Shown: positions 29,609-43,246, numbered from the stretch's first letter. The stretch: DNA of 64,000 nucleotides from Spirochaetota bacterium (GCA_963663865.1 OY760686.1:2432001-2496000), one strand, 5' to 3'. A program made the numbers and translations. Notes: generated from the letters alone by a model not told the origin.

Positions 29609-31261
29609 TTATTTTACAACAAAGAAGTCTACTTTTGATTTAAGTCCTTCAGCTATGGTGTTAATCTCACCCGCGCTGTTAGAAAGCTGATCTGCGTTGC
29701 TGGCGTTCTCCTGGGTCATTGTACTGATGCTGTTTACCGAAGTAACAATCTCGTCAATTGAAAGCTTCTGTTCATCGGTTGCTGTTTTAATCTCGACTGA
29801 TTTTGTCTTAACGATCTCCGCCTGCTTGCTAACAAAATTACCGGTTTCAATCTGTTTCTGCATAGCTCCAAAAGTGAGGTCAATCTTGTCGCTGATTTTA
29901 TTGACTCCAGAAATGATGATGCCGGTATTTGCGACCGTGCTCTGCACGCTCTTCATACCCTTTTGTATCTCATTATCGTTCTCTTTAATGATCTTGACGA
30001 TATCCTTGATACTCGCGGCTGTTTCATCAGCAAGTTTTGTGATCTCATCTGAAACAACTGCAAATCCGCGTCCAGCGTCTCCAGCTCTTGCGGCCTCAAT
30101 AGCGGCGTTAAGGGACAGCAGGTTTATCTGCTCAGAGATATCGCTTATAATATTTACAATGCCCGTCATGACCTTGGAGCTTTCACCAATTCGAGTCATA
30201 CTCTGACTCATCAAATCAAGTGAACTCTCGGCTTCTTTAACATTGTCTGAGATGTTTCTTGTCTCCTGCTGGACATCGCCTATCATCTCGTTCATTTCTG
30301 AATTGTATCTGGATAGATCCTGAATGCGTTCAATAAGCATATTTAGGTTTACAAGCTGATCTTCAGCGCCTTCCACAACATTCTTGACCCTGACAGCCAT
30401 ATTCTCAATACCGGAGTTTATTTCCTCAGAGGACGCAGCCTGATTCTGAGCATTGTCCGAGAATGAGACCGAAGCAACATGCATCTCTTCAATTGAATGA
30501 ATCAGTTTTGCGGATACGAACTTAACATCACGAATAACATCGATAATTCTGACAGTAAACTCGTTGAAACTGTAAACAAGCCGGACTATTTCATCCTTTA
30601 TGCTTGCGTAATTTATAGTGTCCGAGATTGCTGATGAAATTGACATATCCATACTGTTGTCGCCGTCAATAGTCAGATCACCCTGTGTTATCTTGTTGAC
30701 CTTGGAAACAAGGAATGGAATAGGTTCAAATACTATCTTGGAAATCCATGTTATCGTCAGAGCTATCAGCACAAAAACGACGCAGGCCATTATAAACATT
30801 TTGTTTCTGACACTCGTAAGGGCCGCCTCACGGTGATAATCGGTAAAGGTCACCTCAAGCGTTCCGATTTTGATATCATCCATAACGAATTCACGTTTAA
30901 CAGATATGTCGTTGGATCCCTTAATTTTCTTTGTCAGGTTAACAAGCTCAATACCGCTTCCTTCCTTAATGTTGATTCTCGTTATATCAGGGTCGGAGAA
31001 AAAGGACTTACAAATGCTTTCCATCGCTCCCACTTCATACTGCCAGAGGTTATTCATATTTGAAGCGATAATAAGATTTGTGAACCTTTCAGTTTTGTCC
31101 TTTAAATCCTTTGTATCCTTGCCCCTCATGCTGCCTGTAATAAAGAGCGTAAAAATCAGGAAAGATGCAAACACTACCATAATGGTAGGTATCATGATTT
31201 TGTTTTTAAGTGTCATCTTGTAAAGGTACTGATGAAACTTAATCCATAGCTTGTTGTTCAT
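29609..31261 (-). CDS. Methyl-accepting chemotaxis protein (2 TM, about 95-aa periplasmic sensor, HAMP)
   Basis: [36 protein letters not shown] signalling core; two TM helices. Confidence 0.95.
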
Positions 31262-31290
31262 CGCGAAGTCCCCGTTTTTTTTGTTTACTG

Positions 31291-32397
31291 TTACTGTATC
31301 TGATTAAGTATCATATTAATACTGAAATTATATCTGCCAAGACCCCTGTTAAAGGCCTTTGAAAAGCGCTTAAAGTCAATCTGACCCCAGTTCTCCTTCG
31401 ACAATTTCCTGGTGTAAAGATTTGCAGTGTATCTGTTTATCTCTGCCATTTTTGAATTCTGAACTACTCCTTCGGATGCGAAGTCCGCTCCGTTAAAATA
31501 GTCATAAATCATTATTGCTGCCCAGGCCCCTTCCATAAAGTGTCCGCCGAGGCTGACATTCATATCACCTTCGCCCACACTTTTGAAACCGTCCTGGCTC
31601 CAGTCGATACCTCCCGTTACAACATCTGCGCCGGGCTTAAATCCGAGTTTTTTACAGCCCTGCACAACTCCGACTGAAATCGAATCACTTGCCGCCCACA
31701 CTGCTGTGGTTTCAGGATAACGGCTTCTCTTAAACAAATCAAACTTCTGCTCAGCCACTGCTGAGGACCAGTCAGTGTTAAATATCTGTTTCAAATCTAC
31801 ACGAGGGTTATTCTTTACTGCTCTCTTCAATCCTTTAACCCTTTCAATCGAGGCTCCGTCAGCAATATTGCCTGCAAGAGCAACCATCTCGATTTTGCCT
31901 TCCCTGTTTCTTCCGGCATTTTGCATAAGAATATTGGCAAGCCGATATCCCGCCTCTTCGTCGTCAGGTGTAATCTGCCCAATCCAGTACTTGTACTTCT
32001 CTCTGGGTTTACCCATCTCCTCTTTTTCCTGAAAACCTGCATTCACTACAAAAGAAGGAATTTTTGCTTCTTCTCCCAGCTGAATTATAGTTGATCCCTG
32101 CATCTTGAAGTTCTGAAATACCAGAACACTCGGCTTATCCTTTTCGATGCACTCCTTCACCTGTTCGACCATTCTAACATGGTTGCCATTCGCATAATAG
32201 GCCTTTAGCTCCATTCCGAGATCCTCACAGGCAAAGCGCATAAATTCTACAAATTGCCCCCAGAAAAGGTCATCCTCTGTTCTTGGTGCAAAAAATGCCA
32301 CCTTTAGCTTGCCGTCGGCAGCGCTCAATGTATCTCGAAGTGGAATGATTGATAATAACAATAATGCCGCAATCACTGCCTTAAACCTGATTTTCAC
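31291..32397 (-). CDS. Periplasmic sugar-binding protein (type I PBP fold) without cognate ABC permease
   Basis: Signal peptide; D.FW, PD...AGY, ER..GL, W and GGIDWS PBP1 features; GTG start with GAGGTG RBS. Confidence 0.85.
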
Positions 32398-32720
32398 CTA
32401 TCCACCTCTTAAAACTCGCAAATTTTGCTTAATGATTTTATATGTGACTTTTGCTGTCTATTAAAATTATTACAAGTAATTAATGAAATATTTCCAATAA
32501 ATTGTCAGGCTCGTGTTCAGATGCAAAATTCAAAACAGTCCGCCTATCAATCAATTCCACCATACAGGGCTATTGCGGAAATGTCAAATACGGCTAATAA
32601 ACACATGCGTTGTAAATATATTTTTATTGTTAAAATAATTATCGACATATTACAAGTGTAAAATGAACCGGAGGATAAATTTTTTTGATTTGTGGCGGGA
32701 ATTGTAACTATTAATAAACA

Positions 32721-32755
32721 TTTCAGGAGAAAGGCAAAAAGCCTCTCCCCTGAAA
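32721..32755 (-). terminator. Terminator-like hairpin after glk
   Basis: tttcagg.gaga.ggc...gcc.tctc.cctgaaa imperfect stem just downstream of glk. Confidence 0.55.
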
Positions 32756-32764
32756 CGAAATACA

Positions 32765-33832
32765 CTAAATGAGATTGACTGCCGCGTTAGCCGCTCCGTA
32801 AAGAGAAACTGAATAATCCCTGATTATGTAAACAGGAATATCTTTCAGTATAGCAGAAATGTTCTCTTTGTAATTGTTCTCAAACTGGGCCATGAAAAGA
32901 TTGTCTCTGAGTATCATCTCTTCATTTTTTGCAGAAATCCCGCCTGCGATAAAAACGCCTCCGGCGGGAAGCATGATTGTACTGAGACTTCCAGCGAAAT
33001 TTCCGAGCATCTTAACGAAAGTTTCCATCATCTTTTTACAGTCTTCATTTACAAAGCTATATTTTGAGATGAGGGCAGGCTTCTCGTCATCGCTCGCCGC
33101 CTCAATTTCATTAATAACATCATCAAAAACAATATTCTTTTTGTCGCGGAAAAATCTGTAAATATTGAGTATTCCCTGCCCCGAAACAAAAGGCTCAACA
33201 CCCGGCTTGACGTCTATCTTTGAATAGATATAATCTTTGAGTTCCCACGTTACAGAATCAAAAGCGGCGAAATCGGAGTGTCCTCCTTCAGACGAAAAAG
33301 GAATGTATTTGCCTTCTTTTGTCGGAACAAGATAACCAACTCCAAGCCCCGTTCCCGGGCCAATTACAAGTTTTACCCCGTTCTTCGCCTGTGGAATTGT
33401 TCCGTCGCAGTGTGGAATTTTAAGCAATTTCGCCGGATTCTCTGTGTCAAGAATCGGAATAGCGTAGCTGATCGCAAGAAAATCGTTTATGACCTCTGTA
33501 GGTACACCGATCTCCTCGCTGATATGCTTTCCGTTTATTTCCCATGCCAGATTAGTCAGCTTGCAGCTGTTATTTGAAACAGGGCCAGCCGCGCTGATGC
33601 AGCACATATCCGGTTTTAGCCTTTTATCTTTCTGCTCAGCTAATGAAATGAGCTTGTTAATCGGCTGTATAACTCCGTCTACATCTTTGGACTTCCAGTG
33701 AGCCTCAACGATCATTGTGAATTTTCCGTTCTTTTCACCTACGATTGCAAGGTTAGTATTAGTTCCTCCGATGTCTCCGGCAAGAATAATCCTGCTCTGG
33801 TCAAAGTCTTCACTCTGCCATTCCACTTTCAT
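32765..33832 (-). CDS. glk: Glucokinase (E. coli Glk type)
   Basis: AGDIGGTN, AAGPV, LTN, INDF.A, GPGTGLG, SEGGH and GGV.IAGGI motifs. Confidence 0.93.
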   Translation of the reverse strand: MKVEWQSEDFDQSRIILAGDIGGTNTNLAIVGEKNGKFTMIVEAHWKSKDVDGVIQPINKLISLAEQKDKRLKPDMCCISAAGPVSNNSCKLTNLAWEINGKHISEEIGVPTEVINDFLAISYAIPILDTENPAKLLKIPHCDGTIPQAKNGVKLVIGPGTGLGVGYLVPTKEGKYIPFSSEGGHSDFAAFDSVTWELKDYIYSKIDVKPGVEPFVSGQGILNIYRFFRDKKNIVFDDVINEIEAASDDEKPALISKYSFVNEDCKKMMETFVKMLGNFAGSLSTIMLPAGGVFIAGGISAKNEEMILRDNLFMAQFENNYKENISAILKDIPVYIIRDYSVSLYGAANAAVNLI

Positions 33833-33855
33833 GCTCTTTGCCTCCATCATAATAA

Positions 33856-35139
33856 TTACTTCTCGTCAGCTGACGCGCCTTTAAACGCGAAGAATGTTAT
33901 ATATACGTAGCATACAAGAGGAACAATTAAAGAAAACTGTATGCTTTTCATGTCGGCAATTCCAGCCTGAATGAGAGGTATAAGAGCTCCGCCAACGATA
34001 GCCATGTTTAGAAGGGCTGATCCCTGGCTTGTTTTGCTGCCAAGTCCCGCAATTGAAAGGCTGAAAATGGTCGGGAACATTACCGAGTTAAACAGTCCTA
34101 CAAGAAGGATAGCAACCATAGCAACGTGTCCAGTTGCAGTCATTGACACAACAACCATAGCTACTGCAGCCAGACCGCAAACCGCGAGTACTTTCTTTGC
34201 ATCAATCTTCTGCATGATAACTGAACCGATGAATCGGCCAGCCATAGCGCCGCCCCAGTAATATGCAACAAACTTACCGGCCTGCTCCATGCTGTATGTG
34301 AGTCCAAGCTCTTTTCCTGCGATAAAGTTTACAAGAAGCGTACCGATTGCCACTTCAGCTCCAACATAGAAGAATATACCGAAAACTCCAAGCATGAGAT
34401 GCTTATACTGCCATATCTTCTTTCCACTATCTTTTGTCTTTGTTTCTGCAGCGTCTGTACCAACTATTTCAGGGAGCTTAATAAGCGCGAAGAAAAGGGC
34501 AATCACGAACAGCAGAACAGCAAGAACAATATAGGGCCCCTGTACGGCGTTAGCGGCCTGCATGTTATACGCTTCCTTCTCAAGGGCGCTCATCATCTTT
34601 ACCTGTTCAGGGCTCTGAATAGCTGAAGAAAGGATAAACACTGATCCAAGATAAGGAGCCACAGTCGTTCCAAGTGAATTAAGAGCCTGTGTAAGGTTAA
34701 GTCTGCTTGATGCAGTTTCGGGCTTTCCCAACACCGTAACATATGGATTAGCGGCTACCTGAAGAACGGTGATTCCGGAAGCCATTACGAAGAGCGCTCC
34801 AAGAAAAATCCAGTACTGTTGAATAGTCGCTGCCGGGTAGAAGAGCAGACATCCTACTCCAGCAATTGCAAGACCAACAACGATACCCTTTCTGTAACCA
34901 AGCTTCTTTACTATTACTCCCGAAGGAAGCGACATGATAAAAAATGCCATAAAGAAGCAGACCTGTATGAGCATGGCCTGTGTTTTGTTTAGCTCAAATA
35001 CTCCCTGAAGATGCGGATAGAGTATTCCGTTAAGTGATGTGAGAAGCCCCCACATGAAGAAAAGCGATGTAAGGATTATAAGTTCCTTAGCATAACCTTT
35101 CCCGCCGGCATTGCCGGAACCGCTTACTGCGTTAGACAT
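33856..35139 (-). CDS. gluP: Glucose/galactose MFS transporter (GluP/FucP family)
   Basis: LFFMWG, LQVAANPYV.LG...AS.RLNL.QA.NS.GT, F.YVG.EV, YW.GAM.GRF.G and NS.MFPTIF motifs. Confidence 0.9.
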   Translation of the reverse strand: MSNAVSGSGNAGGKGYAKELIILTSLFFMWGLLTSLNGILYPHLQGVFELNKTQAMLIQVCFFMAFFIMSLPSGVIVKKLGYRKGIVVGLAIAGVGCLLFYPAATIQQYWIFLGALFVMASGITVLQVAANPYVTVLGKPETASSRLNLTQALNSLGTTVAPYLGSVFILSSAIQSPEQVKMMSALEKEAYNMQAANAVQGPYIVLAVLLFVIALFFALIKLPEIVGTDAAETKTKDSGKKIWQYKHLMLGVFGIFFYVGAEVAIGTLLVNFIAGKELGLTYSMEQAGKFVAYYWGGAMAGRFIGSVIMQKIDAKKVLAVCGLAAVAMVVVSMTATGHVAMVAILLVGLFNSVMFPTIFSLSIAGLGSKTSQGSALLNMAIVGGALIPLIQAGIADMKSIQFSLIVPLVCYVYITFFAFKGASADEK

Positions 35140-35576
35140 TTCGTCCTCCTGGTTTTGTGTCTTTTGTATTTCTATGTACAGCCGGCAATAGTTCCTTAGT
35201 TATAAATAGCTCTTATGCATCATTAACAGCGACAAGATGACATAATGCCCTTTGTATAAAAAAAACTACTTATAATAAAATGAAAAAATTACCGGGACTA
35301 TCTTATTATAGTTAATCTAAAATCGCGCTTAAAAAATCAATAATAATTCATTATTAATTAGAAAAGTTTTAAAGATTTGTCTTGTTGATTATCTCATTTT
35401 TTATGTGAGTATTCTGAAAATATCAATAAATATTTGCCTTGAGCAGTACATGGGCTGAAAGAAAGCGTCTCTGCGATTTGATAACACAAAAAGCCATCAG
35501 GCCTGTTGAGGCATAACCTGACACTTTGACCTGCTGATTTCAATGAAAGAAGTATAAGCGGACGCATATTGACTAC

Positions 35577-35613
35577 AAAAAAAGCCCGGGAGATATAATA
35601 CCGCCCGGGCCTT
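35577..35613 (-). terminator. Rho-independent terminator after porin gene
   Basis: Minus strand gcccggg...cccgggc followed by a T-run. Confidence 0.75.
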
Positions 35614-35650
35614 AAAATTTCGTTTTATAAACTTTTTAAACTACACAGAA

Positions 35651-36817
35651 TTAGAACTTGTACTCAACACGTACACGGTAACTTGAAGTTTCGTTTTCCT
35701 GTTGTGACAATGTAGCAGTCTTAACATCTCCAGTCATTAAACCATAAACGAATTTAACGGAAAGACCGTCAACCGGTGTAAAATACTTGATGAAGCCATA
35801 AGGCTGAGTGTGACCAAGCTCGTTATTACCGTTGACAGACTCTTTGTATGTGTAGTGGTAACCACCGCCAAGGCTGACAATCTTGAATAATTCAAGATTA
35901 AGAAATCCGCCATAGCTGTATATGTCGTAAGAAGAATCCTTGTTTTGTCCTCCGCCGCTGGTAATACCAAGATTTTCTTCATAAGTTGAAGCGGCATAGC
36001 TAACTCCAGCTGAAACGGCAATTCCATCTACTCCAGGAATCTGGAAGCTGTTAATCTTTGCGCTACCGCCATATCCCATCAATTTTTTCTTGAGATCCTC
36101 TGTGTCTTCGCGTAAAGGATCAATCATGTAATACTCCATTCCGCCTGTGAGCTGAACAAACTCCCATTTGAAATCAAGAACAGGACGCACTCCATACATG
36201 TTATCCGAGTTCGCTCCAGAAATACCGAAAACAGAAGCAACTTCAAGAGTAAGCATATCAGCATTTCCCATTGAGCCAAGAGGTTTTACATGGATCGCTG
36301 CCTGGCCGTTTCTATCGAAGTGACCTCTTGTAGCGTCGAGCTCATATATAACCGGAGTACCATTGTATCCAAAAAAAGCACCCTTTCTCTCGTCTGTGTA
36401 CTGTTCAAGACCTTCGCCCTTGGAGTAAACCTCAAGTCCCTGAAATCTTCCTACTCTGACATCCCAGAGATTTTTCATTCCGAACTCAACATATGAGTCA
36501 AGAGGAATAACACCGAGGTTCTCTGTGTCTGTACTGGCAGAGTCAACGTTTGAGTTAACAGCCATCTCTGCTCTTGCCTTGCCGTAAAAACCATTCATTT
36601 CCTTTTCATATTCCATAGCGAAAACAAAACGTCCAGCCTGATATGTTTTTTCTCGATTAGGAGCGACAGTTGTATTTTCGTTATCAGTTGTCATGAAACC
36701 CATATCTGACCAAAAATAACCTGAATATTTGAACGGATCGTCGTTCTTTGTCTCCTGAGCAAAAACCATCGCAGGAAGAAGCAGCATTGCTGCAAGTAAA
36801 GCATACATCTTTTTCAT
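35651..36817 (-). CDS. Outer-membrane porin-like beta-barrel (putative carbohydrate porin)
   Basis: Signal peptide MKKMY...VFA; amphipathic strands; C-terminal VEYKF; directly downstream of the GH3 gene. Confidence 0.75.
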   Translation of the reverse strand: MKKMYALLAAMLLLPAMVFAQETKNDDPFKYSGYFWSDMGFMTTDNENTTVAPNREKTYQAGRFVFAMEYEKEMNGFYGKARAEMAVNSNVDSASTDTENLGVIPLDSYVEFGMKNLWDVRVGRFQGLEVYSKGEGLEQYTDERKGAFFGYNGTPVIYELDATRGHFDRNGQAAIHVKPLGSMGNADMLTLEVASVFGISGANSDNMYGVRPVLDFKWEFVQLTGGMEYYMIDPLREDTEDLKKKLMGYGGSAKINSFQIPGVDGIAVSAGVSYAASTYEENLGITSGGGQNKDSSYDIYSYGGFLNLELFKIVSLGGGYHYTYKESVNGNNELGHTQPYGFIKYFTPVDGLSVKFVYGLMTGDVKTATLSQQENETSSYRVRVEYKF

Positions 36818-36886
36818 GTTCTTCTCCATTTTGTTAAAGTATGCCGGCGGCAATTGCCGCCGGTTTTTATTGAAATACCAATATAA

Positions 36887-39487
36887 TTACTCGACTACAG
36901 AAGCAGCTGCATCAGTTTCGTCAGATGTTTCTGTATAATCGAAATTAATTGTATCTGTAAGTCTGTTTTGAGCAGAAGGATCAGCGCTGTCTGCAACGAT
37001 CAGAGAATAATCTATATCTTCAAAGACCATCTTCTCAGAGGCTTCATCGTAGTACTTCAATTCATCCGGATTGATATAAATTGTTGCAGTTTCAGTTGCT
37101 CCAGCTGCTATTTGAACCCTGTCGAATCCGAACAGCTGTTTCTCCGGCCTTCCATAAGTGTCATCTACCTGAGTCTGCTCAAAACCTATAAATGCCATAA
37201 CAGATTCAGCGGCGTCATAAGACCCATTGTTGGTCACCTGGACCGTGACTTTCGCCATCTGACTTCCACCTGTTTCTGTGGCATCAAGCTCGACCACGCG
37301 TCCATCCACATATCTGGCATTTACCATCTCAACGTTAAGCCCGCTATATGTATAAGTATTGTAACTGAGTCCGTATCCAAACCAGTACCTCGGTTCTTTG
37401 TCAGTTGTGGTCGGCAAATCCTTGTCAAACCATCTGTAGCCATGATAGTACCCGTATTCGTACTCAGTTGTATCGCGGCTTGTAGGATAATTGGGAAGCT
37501 GCTCCTGAGTCTTCGGCCATGTAATCGGCGTTTTACCGGAGAAGCTGACCGCTTTGGGATAATCGTCCTGAGGTACCTCGGACCATAGATTGAGTTCAAG
37601 TATTTCGCCGAATACCAGCTCTGCAATCGCCTGTCCGCCGCACATTCCGCCATACCAGGCCTGAATGATTACATCGACATCTTCCATAAAATCATCAACA
37701 AGAACAGGCGAACCCGACTCGATAACTACCATGATCTTAAGATCAGTGTTTGTTTCTTTAGCGTCAATGGCAGCCTGGATATTCCCAAGGTCCCTGTCTT
37801 TCAAAGCAAGACTGCTCCTGTCCATAGCCTCGCCCTCTTCGCCTGAATTGGGAAGGGGAACTCCTCCACCAGTCTCAATTGCAGAAAGGTTGGCCGGGAT
37901 GTATGAACAAACTACAACCGCCCACGAGGCTGTCTGAAGCGCAGTCAACGCAAGGTTGTCTGGCAAACTGGGATCATTGACTGCCACATAGGCGTTGTAA
38001 TGATCAGGATCAATTTCACCTGTAAAGTAACTCACCTTCTGATCTCCAAGAAAAGCTCTGAAACCCTGATATGGAGTAATATCCAAAGAGGCTCCCGGCG
38101 CTGATGAAATGCAGTTACTGCTTCCGATGTCTCCCTGCCTCGCAACATTAGCATACTGCCCCAGAAGCACAACCTTGTTTGTTGTAGATATTGTATTGTC
38201 TTCCTTGTCAAGAGGCAGGTATGTACCCTCTGCCGTCCCCAGGCTGTTCACGGTTCTGTCGCCGTCTTTAAGAAGAACCATACCCTCTCTTGCAGCCTCA
38301 AGGGCGAGCTGTATGGCCTCTTCAGTCTGAAGGGCTTTTGAGCTCTGATAGGCATGATACGAGTCCTCCTGGCCAATAGTGTATGTAATGCTGAAATCTC
38401 TTCCATAGTCAAGCATTCCATATTGACTTTTTCTGTAAAGAATTCTGACAACAATCGGCTTCAGGTCATCTTCAGCAACATCTCCAGCCTGTACAGCGCT
38501 TAGAAGCTGCGGACCGTAAAAAGGCTCAGCATTAGCTACCCCGGAACTGAATGGCATCTCAACTCCCATCCAGGCTTCCACAGACTCAGCAGTATTTCGC
38601 GATATCGCGTACCAGTCTGTAATGGTGTATCCTTTAAATGCCCACTCTTCAAACAGAATCTCCCTCAGGAGATTGTAATTCTGAGAACAGTACTTGCCGT
38701 TTACAAGGTTATAGGCCGTCATAAAGGCTGATACGTCCGCCTTGTCTATGGACTTCTTGAAGTGAGGCAGATAGACCTCCCTCATGGTACGCTGGTCGAT
38801 AACAGCATTGATCTGCCTTCTGCTGTTCTCTATGCTGTTTACAGCATAGTGCTTAATCAGGGCCTGCACCTGATAAGAACGGTTACCATCGATATCGTAA
38901 TATTTATTATCGCCCTTGGTGTCGACTTCCTCAGTCTTACCGGACTCCTGAACACCTGCAACGAAGGCAGCCCCCATCTCGCCGAGCAAATGAGTATCCT
39001 CACCGTATGTCTCCTGACAGCGTCCCCATCTCGGGTCAACTACCTGATTGATACATGGAGCCAAAAGAACGTAATTCCCAAGCCCTCTTGTCTCATCGCC
39101 GGCAATTTCTCCGATTTTACGCTCAAGCTCGACATCAAAAGTCGAGGCGCGGTTAATCGAAACAGGAAAAACCGTAGTGTACTTAAATTTTTCCTCATTT
39201 GTCATCGCCTTTGCGCCCCTCGGCCCGTCGCAGTACACCATGCTCGGTATATTCAACCTGTCATTGTATATCTGCGTCATCATCGAGATTACAGTAGCCT
39301 GCATCGGCCCACCGCTCATCTGGTTGACCTTCTCCTCGAGGGTCATCTCGCTGTAGAGTCTTTCCGCTCGATCCCAGTGATAATCATCCTCATTTGGAAC
39401 ATACTTGCTATCCATGCAAGCAACAAACGCGAATGAGGCAAGAAACACCACTAACGCGCCCTTAAGAATCTTATGTATTTTAAACAT
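36887..39487 (-). CDS. GH3 beta-glucosidase-family lipoprotein
   Basis: Lipobox FVAC; DGPRG, RWGR.QETYGED, KHY, M.AYN..NG, nucleophile TDW, EGE..DR, AWY.G..GG.A.A, FGYGLSY and C-terminal FN3-like domain. Confidence 0.93.
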   Translation of the reverse strand: MFKIHKILKGALVVFLASFAFVACMDSKYVPNEDDYHWDRAERLYSEMTLEEKVNQMSGGPMQATVISMMTQIYNDRLNIPSMVYCDGPRGAKAMTNEEKFKYTTVFPVSINRASTFDVELERKIGEIAGDETRGLGNYVLLAPCINQVVDPRWGRCQETYGEDTHLLGEMGAAFVAGVQESGKTEEVDTKGDNKYYDIDGNRSYQVQALIKHYAVNSIENSRRQINAVIDQRTMREVYLPHFKKSIDKADVSAFMTAYNLVNGKYCSQNYNLLREILFEEWAFKGYTITDWYAISRNTAESVEAWMGVEMPFSSGVANAEPFYGPQLLSAVQAGDVAEDDLKPIVVRILYRKSQYGMLDYGRDFSITYTIGQEDSYHAYQSSKALQTEEAIQLALEAAREGMVLLKDGDRTVNSLGTAEGTYLPLDKEDNTISTTNKVVLLGQYANVARQGDIGSSNCISSAPGASLDITPYQGFRAFLGDQKVSYFTGEIDPDHYNAYVAVNDPSLPDNLALTALQTASWAVVVCSYIPANLSAIETGGGVPLPNSGEEGEAMDRSSLALKDRDLGNIQAAIDAKETNTDLKIMVVIESGSPVLVDDFMEDVDVIIQAWYGGMCGGQAIAELVFGEILELNLWSEVPQDDYPKAVSFSGKTPITWPKTQEQLPNYPTSRDTTEYEYGYYHGYRWFDKDLPTTTDKEPRYWFGYGLSYNTYTYSGLNVEMVNARYVDGRVVELDATETGGSQMAKVTVQVTNNGSYDAAESVMAFIGFEQTQVDDTYGRPEKQLFGFDRVQIAAGATETATIYINPDELKYYDEASEKMVFEDIDYSLIVADSADPSAQNRLTDTINFDYTETSDETDAAASVVE

Positions 39488-39781
39488 AAAACCCTCCTCC
39501 TAATTATTTATTCTTTTTACGAATTGATTGCGCCGCTGTAAAACGGACGTAATTTACGCAAATACATTCCGGCATAGTCTAATCGACAAGCGCTAAGCGT
39601 CAATCATTTTTGCCGGCCTGTTTCCCAAATTAATATATGCTTCTTATATATGTATAACACCAAATCATTAAAATTGCATAACCAACAAGTCACTGCATGG
39701 GGGGCAACGTCCTCACATAACCCGGTAACGTACAAAGCTTAAAAACATAAAAAACGAGCTTTGCACTATATTGCCGGAACC

Positions 39782-41011
39782 CTATTGCGCGACCGCCTCC
39801 TTCTCCAATTCATCTCCCGCCGGAAAAGCAGAGTACTCAACTTCTGCCGAGCTCTTTCTGAAATCCTTGGGCGTCATATTTCTCATCTTCGCGAAAGCTC
39901 TGTTAAAGGTGCTCAGGTTCTCAAACCCTACCGAATAGGCTATCTCGAGAACGCTTCTGTCCGTTGCGGAAAGCCTCTCGGCGGCCTCGTCCACTCGCAG
40001 GCGGTTGACGCAGTCGTTTATCTTCTCTCCGAAGTAGAGCTTGAAGTACCGTCCAAAGTTGTCGGGGTTCATGCCAATCATGCGCGCCAGCCCCTCTCTT
40101 GATATCGTACGGTTGAAGTTGGCCTCTATGTAGCTCTTCGCCTTTTTCAGCTTTATCTCAACTGAAGGCGAGATCTGGGACTGGAGCCCGACGGCTGCCG
40201 CCTGCGCCGCCCTGAGGGCAAACCGCTTTCTCAAACGCGCAACAGCCCAGAAGGCAGCGGCGGCAGAAAGCACATAAAGAACACTTGCAAACACGCGGGC
40301 CGCGGCCTGTCTGCCGGCATTGCTTCTGTCATTAAACACGACTGAAACCGTACCGCCGACATGGCCGCTGAAGCTGAAAGGCTCCTGAAAGCTCATCCTG
40401 ACACGCCCCCCAGGGCGCCCTTTGAAGCTAAAAAAAACGTCGCTGCCTCTATATACGGCAAGCTCTTCGATATCTTCATTTTCAATAAAGCGTCTCATGC
40501 GCTCTTCGGCGTCAGATGCGTCCGGGCTTCCGCCTTCCAGCGCCGAGGCCATGAGCCGCGTGACGCGTTCGGCCCTTCTCCACTGAGCGAAGTCGGAAAA
40601 TACTATAGACACAGTTCCTACGATGTGCCCGCCGGACTCAAGCTCTGCCCTCCGGAAAGCCTCCCTCATTCCCGAAATTCTCCTGGAATGACTAAAGACA
40701 ACATTCCCTTCGGCGTCTCTGACAACGGCCTCCTGCACATCAGTATCCTGAAGAACAGTCGCCATGTTCTTTTCCACAACACCCACTGCGCCAGCGGCAA
40801 GATGAGAGGCGTTATTCTCTGCCGCAAACTCTGTGAGACGATCCATCTTGCCCTGAGACGGAAGGCCGGAGCCGTCAGCGGACGTATCTACTATCAGCGC
40901 AAAGGCAAAAAATATAGCAGAAATTGCAAAAAGCGCTATAACCGCCGGACCAAAAACAGGCCTGATAATTCTTTTAAAATTTTGAATTGCCACATTTATC
41001 ACATTAATCAT
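39782..41011 (-). CDS. Transmembrane AraC-family regulator with duplicated periplasmic sensor module
   Basis: Two TM segments around two about 88-aa repeats ending GTVS.VF.D; C-terminal AraC HTH (LA...GM....F.R.FK...G; IAY.VGF.N.S.FNR.F.K...TP..FR). Confidence 0.88.
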   Translation of the reverse strand: MINVINVAIQNFKRIIRPVFGPAVIALFAISAIFFAFALIVDTSADGSGLPSQGKMDRLTEFAAENNASHLAAGAVGVVEKNMATVLQDTDVQEAVVRDAEGNVVFSHSRRISGMREAFRRAELESGGHIVGTVSIVFSDFAQWRRAERVTRLMASALEGGSPDASDAEERMRRFIENEDIEELAVYRGSDVFFSFKGRPGGRVRMSFQEPFSFSGHVGGTVSVVFNDRSNAGRQAAARVFASVLYVLSAAAAFWAVARLRKRFALRAAQAAAVGLQSQISPSVEIKLKKAKSYIEANFNRTISREGLARMIGMNPDNFGRYFKLYFGEKINDCVNRLRVDEAAERLSATDRSVLEIAYSVGFENLSTFNRAFAKMRNMTPKDFRKSSAEVEYSAFPAGDELEKEAVAQ

Positions 41012-41404
41012 AATAATACCGCTTCCGCCTCCTTGCAAGCATTTAATTGGCAAACAATGGAGTTTAGTTATATTTGATATTTATATATGCATATAAACTT
41101 TTGATAATGTAATATCCTCCTTTGGTCCCTCAACCTTTTAAGGCAGCATTCATGCCAATCTGTATGAGCATTTTTCTTGAAAAAAATGACAATAAAAAAC
41201 AAAGTGGGTCAAAAAAATTTCCATTGCTCTGTATTAAGCAGCCTCAAACACAATTGCTCTTTTATGAAACCTTGCGGACTTATGTCTTTATAAAGGCATT
41301 TTCTCATAGACAGCAGCTGTGTTCATTTGGAGATTATCATTATCAGTTTTAACTTTTCATCTCGAAGATCAGTTAATCTTAACTCTATAAAGACAAGCGG
41401 TCAC

Positions 41405-43246
41405 ATGATAAAGGCAATCAATCTATCAAAATCCTTCGGCGAACAGGAATTATTTAACTCTGTAAACTTCGCAATCGGCACCGGAGAGCGCGCTGGCCTT
41501 ATCGGCAGAAACGGCCACGGCAAAACAACCCTCCTGCGCATAATCACCGGAGAAGACCATCCGGACTCAGGAGAAATATCCAGGCCGCGCGGCTACACCC
41601 TCGGCTTCGTTAGACAGCATATCGGCTTCTCCGGTTCCACAATTATTGAAGAGGCCTGCAGCGGCCTGCCCGTCCACATGAAGGACGAAAAATGGAGGGC
41701 AGAGAAAATTCTTGCCGGACTCGGCTTTTCGCAGAGTGATTTTCTCAGACATCCGTCAGAATTCTCGGGAGGATTTCAGGTAAGGCTCAACCTCGCGTCA
41801 GTCCTTGTTTCAGAACCGGACATGCTTCTTCTTGACGAACCCACCAACTACCTGGATGTAGTGTCAATCAGATGGCTTTCCTCTTTTTTAAAACAGTGGA
41901 AAGGCGAACTTCTCCTTATAACTCACGACAGGCATTTCATGGACAGCGTAATCACGCATGTCCTAGGAATCCACAGACAGAAGATACGAAAGATGGCGGG
42001 CTCTACCGAAAAATACTACGAACAAATTGTAAAAGAAGAGGAGATTTACGAAAAAACCCGTCTCAACGACGAAAAAAAACGCAAGGAGACTGAGCTCTTC
42101 ATAACCCGATTCAGGGCGAAAGCGCGTCTTGCAGGCATGGTTCAGTCCCGAATCAAGGCGCTTGACCGCATGGAGAAAATGGACAGGCTCGACAAAATAA
42201 AGTCGCTGGACTTCTCCTTTAGCTACCTGCCCTCACAGAGCAAAACCGCGCTGCACGTAAAAGACCTGACCTTCGGTTACGCCGATATCCCACTCATAAA
42301 AGATCTTACTTTCTCCGTAAGCAGGACCGACCGGATATGCGTCATCGGAAAAAACGGCAAGGGAAAATCCACGCTGCTGAAGCTTTTAGCAGGCGTGCTG
42401 AGCCCACGGAGCGGAGAGTTGCTCTTTCATCCCGACACCTCCATTGGTTACTACGCTCAGACCAATGTTTCCACGCTCAACGAAAAGCTCACAATTGAAG
42501 AGGAGATATGCACAGCCGGATGTGAAAAGCAGCAGGCCAGAAACATCGCGGGAGCCATGATGTTCGAAGGAGACGCGGCGCTGAAGCCGGTCAGCGTGCT
42601 TTCCGGAGGCGAGAAGAGCCGGGTCATGCTGGGAAAAATACTTGTTTCACCTTCAAACCTTCTGCTTCTCGACGAGCCGACCAACCACCTTGACATGGAT
42701 TCATGCGACGCGTTTCTCGCCGCTGTCGACGATTTTGACGGGGCCTGCATAGTTGTTACACACAACGAGATGTTCCTGCACTCCCTCGCGAACCGCTTCA
42801 TCGTTTTCGGTGAAACCGGCATAACCGTGTTTGAGGGAACATATTCGCAGTTTCTTGAAAAAATCGGGTGGGAGGATGAGGCCGTCCGTGACGGCGGCAG
42901 ACAGAAAAACAGCGGGCAGCCCGGACGAAAGGAGACCCGAAAACTGAAAGCGGACCTGTTAAAAAGGAAAACCTCTGAACTAAAACCGCTTGAAGAGAGC
43001 ATCGCCAGAATCGAATCCGATATCATCTTCAACGAGGAGCGTACCGAAAAGATTACGGAAGAAATACTTGTACTCTCACAGCAGGGCAACGGAAACGGCG
43101 AGGCAATCGCGTCCCTTTCCAGGGAGCTGCACAGCCTGAAACATGAAAATGCATCCCTCTACGAAGAGCTTGACGCAGTCACCAGAGAGCAAGGGAGACT
43201 TTCAGCGCTCTTTGACAGTGAACTGGAAGCCCTCGATCAGCCCTGA
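41405..43246 (+). CDS. ABC-F family ATP-binding protein
   Basis: Two ABC domains (GRNGHGKT, SGG, LLDEPTN twice), no TM segments, C-terminal coiled coil. Confidence 0.93.
   Translation: MIKAINLSKSFGEQELFNSVNFAIGTGERAGLIGRNGHGKTTLLRIITGEDHPDSGEISRPRGYTLGFVRQHIGFSGSTIIEEACSGLPVHMKDEKWRAEKILAGLGFSQSDFLRHPSEFSGGFQVRLNLASVLVSEPDMLLLDEPTNYLDVVSIRWLSSFLKQWKGELLLITHDRHFMDSVITHVLGIHRQKIRKMAGSTEKYYEQIVKEEEIYEKTRLNDEKKRKETELFITRFRAKARLAGMVQSRIKALDRMEKMDRLDKIKSLDFSFSYLPSQSKTALHVKDLTFGYADIPLIKDLTFSVSRTDRICVIGKNGKGKSTLLKLLAGVLSPRSGELLFHPDTSIGYYAQTNVSTLNEKLTIEEEICTAGCEKQQARNIAGAMMFEGDAALKPVSVLSGGEKSRVMLGKILVSPSNLLLLDEPTNHLDMDSCDAFLAAVDDFDGACIVVTHNEMFLHSLANRFIVFGETGITVFEGTYSQFLEKIGWEDEAVRDGGRQKNSGQPGRKETRKLKADLLKRKTSELKPLEESIARIESDIIFNEERTEKITEEILVLSQQGNGNGEAIASLSRELHSLKHENASLYEELDAVTREQGRLSALFDSELEALDQP

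Follow-up and report, generated by a model that had tools for sequence, protein, structure and literature searches.

Periplasmic sugar-binding proteins paired with small-module receptors, mostly transmembrane AraC regulators, as a probable two-gene sensor family in a Leptospirales-related spirochete

In LuxP-LuxQ, as in XylFII-LytS, ChvE-VirA and TorT-TorS, a sensor kinase has a dedicated binding protein that docks on its periplasmic domain, and in MBP-Tar and GBP/RBP-Trg of E. coli a sugar-binding protein relays its ligand to a chemoreceptor. Here we analyzed a 64,000-nt stretch of DNA from a Spirochaetota bacterium (GCA_963663865.1 OY760686.1:2432001-2496000; hereafter the window, with positions counted from its first letter), in which gene calls, Pfam and NCBIfam define a locus of seven minus-strand genes between 29609 and 41053. 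The locus encodes a methyl-accepting chemotaxis protein (MCP), a periplasmic binding protein (PBP) just upstream of it, and a transmembrane AraC regulator that shares a small periplasmic module with the MCP. An earlier note on this DNA had proposed that one ligand-loaded binding protein serves both receptors. We found that the host genome (labelled G000), a Leptospirales-related single contig of 3.2 Mb that is 98% complete, encodes 14 proteins with this module, 13 of which are encoded immediately after a PBP from a single diverged Peripla_BP_4 subfamily (sPBP, for sensor periplasmic sugar-binding protein). We consider it probable that these receptors are PBP-dependent sensors, forming a two-gene sensor family whose output is mostly a kinase-free membrane AraC and in one case an MCP.

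In a 2021 review (PMC8050422), the targets named for binding proteins are chemoreceptors, kinases, cyclic di-GMP (c-di-GMP) enzymes and Ser/Thr kinases, and neither "transcriptional regulator" nor "one-component" occurs in its main text; a table of the review assigns LuxP, XylFII and ChvE to PF13407, and GBP and RBP to Peripla_BP_4. In systems of the LuxP-LuxQ type, a Peripla_BP_4-type PBP gene adjoins the receptor gene and has no tie to a transporter. Both features recur here: a dedicated PBP gene is adjacent to 13 of the 14 receptors, and also to receptors in four related genomes (G015, G024, G037 and G318), and the PBP stands outside any ATP-binding cassette (ABC) importer. However, the output here is a membrane AraC or an MCP in place of a kinase, the modules are of smaller size, and the likeness to LuxP-LuxQ is one of gene arrangement, PBP family and predicted fold. 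MBP-Tar and GBP/RBP-Trg differ in another way, as their PBPs serve ABC transporters as well, and the receptor domains on which they dock are four-helix bundles (TarH). The sPBPs have no transporter, and their receptors carry a PAS-like domain.

On the side of the regulator, the nearest known systems are CBP-ChiS, which is kinase-based, and TfoS, which senses directly, both from Vibrio cholerae. In CBP-ChiS, a periplasmic solute-binding protein controls a transmembrane DNA-binding regulator of glycan use, but ChiS is of the histidine-kinase type and its phosphorylation state sets DNA binding (PMC12704726), whereas the AraCs described here have no kinase or receiver domain. The periplasmic construct of ChiS, at residues 1-427 (PMC12704726), is also far larger, and the two are likened by description only. 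TfoS is a membrane AraC that responds to glycan oligomers, but its periplasmic part, according to PMC3903286, is a single large domain believed to bind chitin oligomers itself, and no partner PBP is described there. In PruR-DcpA and NspS-MbaA, a periplasmic ligand binder is encoded just upstream of the receptor in one operon, two membrane helices of the receptor enclose a periplasmic domain of ~140 aa, and ligand promotes docking; PruR, however, is a SUOX-like pterin binder, and the outputs are c-di-GMP enzymes or kinases (PMC11194511). Our literature search, which included Leptospira and left most subscription journals outside its coverage, did not turn up any membrane AraC described as paired with a binding protein, nor any account of an sPBP-module pairing. 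The novel element would be a membrane AraC that, without a phosphorelay, is the output of PBP-dependent sensing.

According to the earlier note, residues 54-141 of the MCP align without gaps over 88 aa, with 18 identities, to the first periplasmic repeat of the AraC. This proved exact: between 30839-31102 and 40592-40855 we counted 18 identities and 40 positives. The BLOSUM62 sum of the alignment is 79, a score that lies at z 8.1 and was reached by none of 20,000 shuffles. BLASTP of the whole MCP against the AraC matched the first repeat at E 8e-07 and the second at E 0.012. AlphaFold2 predicted the MCP module, at a predicted local distance difference test (pLDDT) score of 94.6, as two helices and four strands with only short loops between the strands, and the periplasmic region of the AraC, at 88.5, as the same two-helix/four-strand unit twice in tandem. 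The second module copy that had been read in the AraC is thus present by hidden Markov model (HMM), BLASTP and structural model alike, and the homology between the MCP module and the AraC repeats is real. The similarity is unspecific to this pair. In a search of the host genome with the MCP module, the neighbouring AraC ranked only 13th of 17 matches (E 0.0015), and five other matches to paralogs had E values of 8e-13 to 4e-9, so the MCP module is nearer to other paralogs than to its neighbour.

An iterated HMM search found 25 module copies in 14 proteins of the host genome, namely 13 transmembrane AraCs and one MCP. When 164 database domains were taken into a broader HMM, the set of carriers in this genome did not grow. 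All 12 of the other AraC carriers have HTH_18 above the Pfam cut-off. Two modules in tandem are found in 11 AraCs (the window AraC and ten more), and a single module in two; the window MCP is the sole non-AraC carrier and the only module-bearing MCP of the genome, and its module has the LW.Y(E/N/D) motif that typifies the membrane-proximal copies in the AraCs. No Pfam domain was found N-terminal of HTH_18 in the window AraC or its 12 paralogs, and the classical cytoplasmic N-terminal domain was not encountered among them. In the window AraC, this part consists of a first transmembrane helix (TM1), the modules and a second helix (TM2). As read off the translation, two hydrophobic segments flank its modules, with basic residues on the side of the DNA-binding domain; the corresponding segments of the MCP lie at about residues 22-44 and 155-178.

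Each of the 12 other AraC genes has a Peripla_BP_4 gene (369-412 aa) upstream on the same strand, separated by 3-140 nt in 11 cases and by 305 nt in the twelfth. A phmmer search with the window PBP returned exactly 14 subfamily members in the genome, of which 12 lie beside AraCs, one beside the MCP, and one is an orphan (G000 760013-761146) with no adjoining receptor, followed by flavodoxin and DUF2023 genes. Of the 14 module proteins, only the window AraC has no sPBP gene next to its own. The earlier note had described the window PBP as lacking an ABC permease and ATPase, which holds for its neighbouring genes by Pfam and gene calls; none adjoins any other sPBP pair either. BPD_transp_2, the permease family of such PBPs, had 0 matches across the genome (9 candidates scored), while a control matched 12 of 14 genomes, so the sPBPs cannot feed a transporter of that family. 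Genes for GH3 glycoside hydrolases, rhamnosidases, carboxylesterases, esterases or sulfatases adjoin 10 of the 12 other pairs.

Two of these neighbourhoods have features of their own. In the twelfth pair (G000 695550-697899), an open reading frame of 122 aa without family assignment occupies the 305-nt gap, overlapping both the PBP gene and the gene for a 290-aa single-module AraC, and it looks like a broken or re-started two-module gene. At G000 2258105-2260824, a 564-aa MCP without the module is encoded by a gene whose start lies within the gene for a canonical Peripla_BP_4 protein of 342 aa (128-129 bits); this second PBP-MCP pair adjoins a pair of sPBP and single-module AraC.

The PBP tree and the AraC tree share all four supported groupings, which are 692k with 815k and 821k, 738k with 2799k, 2661k with 2817k, and the three AraC-type pairs of G318, G015 and G024. 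In Mantel tests, PBP distances correlated with the distances of the cognate modules (r = 0.59, 0 of 5000 permutations as high) and with those of the DNA-binding domains (r = 0.53, 1 of 5000 permutations). These results show that the PBP-receptor pairs duplicated and diverged as units. A tree of 45 modules over 101 columns left 25 of its 42 inner branches unsupported and gives no origin for the MCP module.

The best PDB match of the MCP-module model was 4u64, the periplasmic domain of the LapD ortholog CdgS9 (Z 13.2, root-mean-square deviation (rmsd) 1.8, 102 of 103 residues, Foldseek E 1.2e-4), and the module profile matched the 4u64 sequence at a borderline E of 0.0013. PDC/Cache ligand-binding domains (CitA, WalK, dCache and chemoreceptor domains) reached Z 8-11, below the LapD-type match, and the periplasmic domain of LuxQ reached Z 7.8 against a single module. 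The periplasmic part of LuxQ consists of two tandem PAS-like folds, and LuxQ was the second Foldseek match of the AraC tandem model (E 2.2e-4), but the superposition was poor (rmsd 14.5 over 234 columns). Weak Pfam matches were obtained to CHASE5 (PF17149) for 4 of 25 modules (best E 0.0093), to CHASE8 for 2 of 25 and to LapD_MoxY_N for 1 of 25 (E 0.061). The MCP module itself matched none of these three, and no Cache family of Pfam matched the module.

By its predicted structure, the module is a minimal PAS/PDC-like periplasmic domain of ~100 residues, of the LapD/CHASE5 kind, placed between two membrane helices as in LapD/CdgS9 (4u64, 3pjv). The periplasmic domain of LapD binds the periplasmic protein LapG; Signalling by LapD runs outward from the cell interior, however, and LapG is a protease rather than a binding protein. 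In CitA-type domains, a helical insert between the strands covers the pocket, and the short loops of the modelled module appear to leave little room for such an insert. The profile of the sPBP subfamily matched PDB entry 3h75 at E 4.5e-60 over its whole length, including a C-terminal extension, with the next chain at E 1.3e-20. This entry is a solved, apparently uncharacterised "periplasmic sugar-binding domain protein", of which the papers listed by our literature search made no mention; among the papers listed on CHASE5, CHASE8 and LapD_MoxY_N, none linked these domains to binding proteins.

To see how far the module extends beyond this genome, 1.84 billion representatives were searched with the module profile, which gave 551 proteins at E <= 0.001; a word-based search with MCP residues 20-200 gave 2 proteins only, and the profile search was needed to reveal the family. 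Among the 83 proteins that were Pfam-scanned from the best 150 of the 551, the outputs were MCP (28), AraC (17), histidine kinase (17), SpoIIE (3), HD-GYP (3), GGDEF-EAL (1) and GAF (1), with HAMP only in 2 and no match in 11. AraC fusions top the match list, and several of them appear, by length, to be the host genome's own; the module-AraC fusion looks rare. Matches to the module were found in 7 of 40 relative genomes, at 1-5 each versus 25 in the host genome. Of the 301 genomes searched in the phylum, 5 have the PBP subfamily, the host being one of them (6 candidates scored per genome, giving a presence tally rather than a copy count).

Outside this lineage, a locus search with an alignment of 8 PBP sequences gave relatives of the sPBP in SAR324, Sulfurimonas, Hahella, Comamonadaceae, Desulfamplus, Sericytochromatia and other groups. 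Across all the loci retrieved, a module receptor lies within 170 nt of 15 of 48 sPBP genes (12 when three rows from repeat records are left aside), and two more sPBP genes overlap the gene of a CHASE5 receptor, in one case a GGDEF protein and in the other a HisKA_2 kinase. In Hahella, a module-HAMP kinase adjoins the sPBP; in one SAR324 locus, a CHASE5 kinase lies ~1 kb off on the other strand, and four look-alike loci match it in gene sizes. The outputs seen together with an sPBP and a module or CHASE5 domain are AraC, MCP, histidine kinase, hybrid kinase, GGDEF and SpoIIE phosphatase.

The family is a lineage-specific expansion of a transporter-less PBP together with a receptor that carries a LapD/CHASE5-like module. 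Docking of the PBP on the module is supported by the adjacency in 13 of 14 cases, the absence of a permease, the congruent trees, a compact fold close to a protein-docking domain, and the module or CHASE5 receptors beside PBP relatives elsewhere. The earlier note had counted it against a shared sensor if the module were a generic variant equally similar to many receptors in the genome. To the letter this is what was found, but those receptors all belong to the same PBP-paired family, and the docking idea is thereby strengthened rather than refuted.

We infer docking, ligand and direction of regulation from the anatomy, paralogy, adjacency, permease absence, tree congruence and predicted fold described above. 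The soluble sPBP would bind a sugar or oligosaccharide released from a glycan and, once loaded, dock on the module, with the resulting change passing through TM2. In the AraCs, the signal would reach the DNA-binding domain directly, through no kinase or phosphorelay, and activate the genes for hydrolases and uptake nearby; the MCP would pass it to its chemotaxis signalling domain. The window PBP-MCP pair would then be a chemotaxis sensor unit complete in itself, probably transcribed from a promoter of its own. It would stand as an appendage to a conserved locus for beta-glycosides and glucose (GH3, porin-like gene, GluP and Glk), whose regulator would be the transmembrane AraC upstream.

Several observations weigh against PBP-dependent sensing by this family. 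The module reached no curated cut-off in Pfam or NCBIfam. PAS/PDC domains commonly bind small ligands themselves, and the apparent lack of a pocket is read from a predicted model. Co-divergence of PBP and receptor is expected from duplication as a unit and is no proof of contact, and the partial correlations (0.44 for the module versus 0.33 for the DNA-binding domain) differ too little to separate contact from shared history. In the wider set, about 30 of the 48 sPBP rows have no adjoining module or CHASE5 receptor, several of them with less than 1.3 kb of flank. Finally, a 503-aa MCP of G318 (L086:5654-7165) carries the module and HAMP, with no sensor-type PBP within the 12 kb retrieved.

The features of the locus are listed in Table 1. 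The placement of its genes, all on one strand and with the binding protein ending 29 nt before the MCP start, is as the earlier note had given it. Among the genes between the two receptors, GH3, GluP and Glk were borne out by Pfam or NCBIfam, while "porin" is only a possible label, a lead for the 400-aa protein; BLASTP found no similarity of this protein to a Porin_5 protein of the same genome (E 4). A gene without family assignment (376-395 aa) has the same position in four syntenic loci. The GH3 protein matched no NCBIfam equivalog at its cut-off. The window sPBP has a signal peptide without a lipobox cysteine, and its top NCBIfam match was YtfQ, at 58 bits against a cut-off of 510. Upstream of the AraC gene lie 273 bp and then a divergent ABC-F gene.

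Table 1. Features of the locus, with positions in the 64,000-nt window
Feature	Position	Strand	Description
MCP, 550 aa	29609..31261	-	TM1, one periplasmic module, TM2, signalling domain; MCPsignal 96.5 bits (cut-off 34.6)
MCP periplasmic module, residues 47-149	30815..31123	-	HMM envelope; membrane-proximal type, LWQYE motif
sPBP (MCP-type), 368 aa	31291..32397	-	Peripla_BP_4 82.3 bits (cut-off 35.1)
Promoter-like site ahead of the sPBP gene	32559..32587	-	TTGACA, 17 nt, TATGGT; 10/12 positions (consensus scan only)
Terminator-like hairpin just 3' of glk, between the catabolic genes and PBP-MCP	32719..32757	-	17 pairs, 8 G-C, then T-rich tail (consensus scan only)
Glucokinase (Glk)	32765..33850	-	Pfam Glucokinase 236.7 bits; NCBIfam glucokinase 239.9 bits, under that model's cut-off of 333
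GluP-type glucose/galactose major facilitator superfamily (MFS) transporter	33856..35139	-	TIGR01272 gluP 352.2 bits (cut-off 202.55)
Conserved 400-aa protein, possible carbohydrate porin	35651..36853	-	No Pfam/NCBIfam match; language-model search links it to porin clusters (score 0.97)
GH3 glycoside hydrolase, 866 aa	36887..39487	-	Glyco_hydro_3 103.2, Glyco_hydro_3_C 86.4, Fn3-like 51.6 bits
Transmembrane AraC regulator, 423 aa from TTG start (ATG at 41011)	39782..41053	-	TM1, two tandem modules, TM2, helix-turn-helix
AraC-type DNA-binding domain	39854..40090	-	HTH_18 79.8 bits (cut-off 33.6), residues 322-400
AraC module 2, membrane-proximal, diverged	40304..40597	-	HMM domain independent E value (i-E) 2.4e-19
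AraC module 1 (repeat aligned to the MCP in the earlier note)	40571..40873	-	HMM domain i-E 2.1e-23

The locus probably comprises several transcription units, of which PBP-MCP is one, because there is a hairpin after glk, a promoter-like site ahead of the PBP gene, and, between the 400-aa gene and the MFS gene, a gap of 511 bp that holds a further hairpin-like stretch; these hairpins and the promoter-like site come from consensus scans, which are not evidence of function. A comparison of four intergenic regions yielded no usable common operator-like motif, just AT-rich 12-mers with one mismatch, and none was found in common between the upstream regions of the GH3 and PBP genes. The G+C content is 0.41-0.42 across MCP, PBP, Glk and MFS, and 0.47-0.48 across the 3' part of GH3 and the AraC (window 30001-36000 versus 38001-42000).

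The locus was also found in four relatives. With X for the gene without family assignment, the order in the window is AraC-GH3-X-MFS-Glk-sPBP-MCP. G318 has sPBP-AraC-742aa-738aa-X-MFS-Glk-sPBP-MCP on one strand, and its 738-aa gene appears, cut, as the GH3 of L076. G015 has sPBP-AraC-GH3-X-MFS-Glk and then a divergent cadherin-like gene followed by sPBP-MCP; the order in G024 is the same, with no MCP seen. In G037, the order is AraC-AraC-GH3-GH3-GH3-X-MFS-Glk-sPBP-MCP, with no PBP adjoining the AraCs and one sPBP in the whole genome (all 14 candidates scored) for two AraCs and one MCP. The cadherin-like genes that precede the MCP-type PBP gene in G015 and G024 encode large proteins with cadherin-like beta-sandwich repeats (866 and 773 aa; L060:10338-12938 and L059:4697-7018), and the window has no counterpart of them.

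Two kinds of sPBP are distinguished in these loci. The window PBP is 51-54% identical to the MCP-side PBPs of the relatives and 33-36% identical to their AraC-side PBPs. In the PBP tree, the MCP-side PBPs, including that of the window, form one clade (support 95) that joins kinase-associated PBPs of other phyla (98), and all AraC-side PBPs fall in the opposite branch (98). An AraC-type sPBP is kept separately in three of the five syntenic loci (G015, G024 and G318), and the clade of these locus-specific AraC-side PBPs (support 100) has no member in the host genome. The window AraC has lost its partner of this type, and its modules have diverged strongly.

One reading of that divergence, a serious one though short of even odds, is that the window AraC now works without any PBP, sensing directly, being constitutively active or inactive, or drifting after the loss of its partner. 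It sits on a long branch (2.08) in the AraC tree, with a composition unlike the rest of the alignment. The five aligned AraCs of the syntenic loci, including those of G037, keep the (L/M)W.Y(N/D) motif (WDYN-type in module 2), whereas the window AraC has lost it from both modules, the second of which is also shortened by a deletion of two residues. No other AraC of the set is as dissimilar to the MCP modules as the window AraC (local scores 38-82), while its DNA-binding domain, the most conserved part of the AraC alignment, is still highly conserved. Nevertheless, its periplasmic region remains an open frame in which both modules are predicted confidently, and the orphan AraCs of G037 keep well-conserved modules although they have no PBP of their own.

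These orphan AraCs lead to the proposal of the earlier note, in which the single MCP-type sPBP would dock on both the MCP and the orphan AraC, driving taxis as well as induction of the GH3 locus. The general idea that a binding protein relays ligand to the module is strongly supported by the genomic context, while one PBP for both MCP and AraC is neither shown nor excluded by it, and we regard such sharing as possible but doubtful. The window AraC alone among the 14 module proteins lacks its own sPBP, and an ortholog from the syntenic AraC-type clade is absent from the host genome. In G037, where the gene order matches, a single sPBP is available to two motif-bearing AraCs and the MCP, and it is to these orphan AraCs that the window AraC is nearest (31% identity). 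The modules of MCP and locus AraC are also close within the relatives, with scores of 104-157 inside G037, G015 and G318, and the window MCP module scores 111-197 against those foreign AraC modules. However, the window AraC modules, motif-less and on their long, compositionally deviant branch, score just 82 (module 1) and 40 (module 2) against their own MCP module. G015, G024 and G318 keep a distinct AraC-type sPBP, 33-36% identical and across a split supported at 98, and both the strong terminator-like hairpin, by which PBP-MCP looks like a separate transcription unit, and the lack of an operator-like motif common to the intergenic regions speak against sharing. The divergence of the window AraC is compatible with drift after partner loss and with re-tuning to a new partner, and the data cannot tell which. 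If the PBP is shared, one binding event would both direct the cell's swimming toward a product of glycan breakdown and switch on the catabolism of that product. The wider proposal of a portable two-piece sensor that has been attached to every major output class, with one PBP serving AraC and MCP here and in G037, is likewise tentative.

It is rather unlikely that the module itself is the ligand sensor, an ordinary small Cache/PAS domain, and that the adjoining PBPs scavenge or buffer periplasmic sugars. The fold is common to the PDC/Cache ligand sensors noted above (CitA and chemoreceptor domains, Z 8-11), and the module is carried by many database receptors (551 representatives), but the 13 of 14 adjacencies, the congruent trees and the missing permease are hard to explain without a functional tie, and the model, with its short loops, has no CitA-type helical insert between strands. 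Service of the window AraC in trans by another AraC-type sPBP, such as the orphan at G000 760013-761146, is improbable: the genome holds exactly one unpaired sPBP and one unpaired module-bearing AraC, and the orphan falls in the AraC-associated branch of the PBP tree, but it lies 1.7 Mb away beside the flavodoxin and DUF2023 genes and outside the syntenic AraC-type clade, grouping with the PBP of another pair (support 85).

If docking is real, no simpler path leading from a periplasmic PBP to a promoter would be known than PBP-dependent sensing by this family of 13 AraCs in a 3.2-Mb genome, most of them paired with PBPs beside hydrolase genes. Glycan loci of Bacteroides use hybrid two-component regulators, and the family described here would be their spirochete counterpart. 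A likely function is also suggested for a widespread unnamed periplasmic domain and for the uncharacterised structure 3h75. With 14 paralogous pairs in one cell and two natural cases of fewer PBPs than receptors, the set suits the study of how docking specificity evolves.

Another tie between a membrane sensor and an AraC may exist in the same genome: at G000 749723-751927, a gene for a MASE3 membrane sensor (341 aa) is directly followed by one for a 371-aa AraC without the module.

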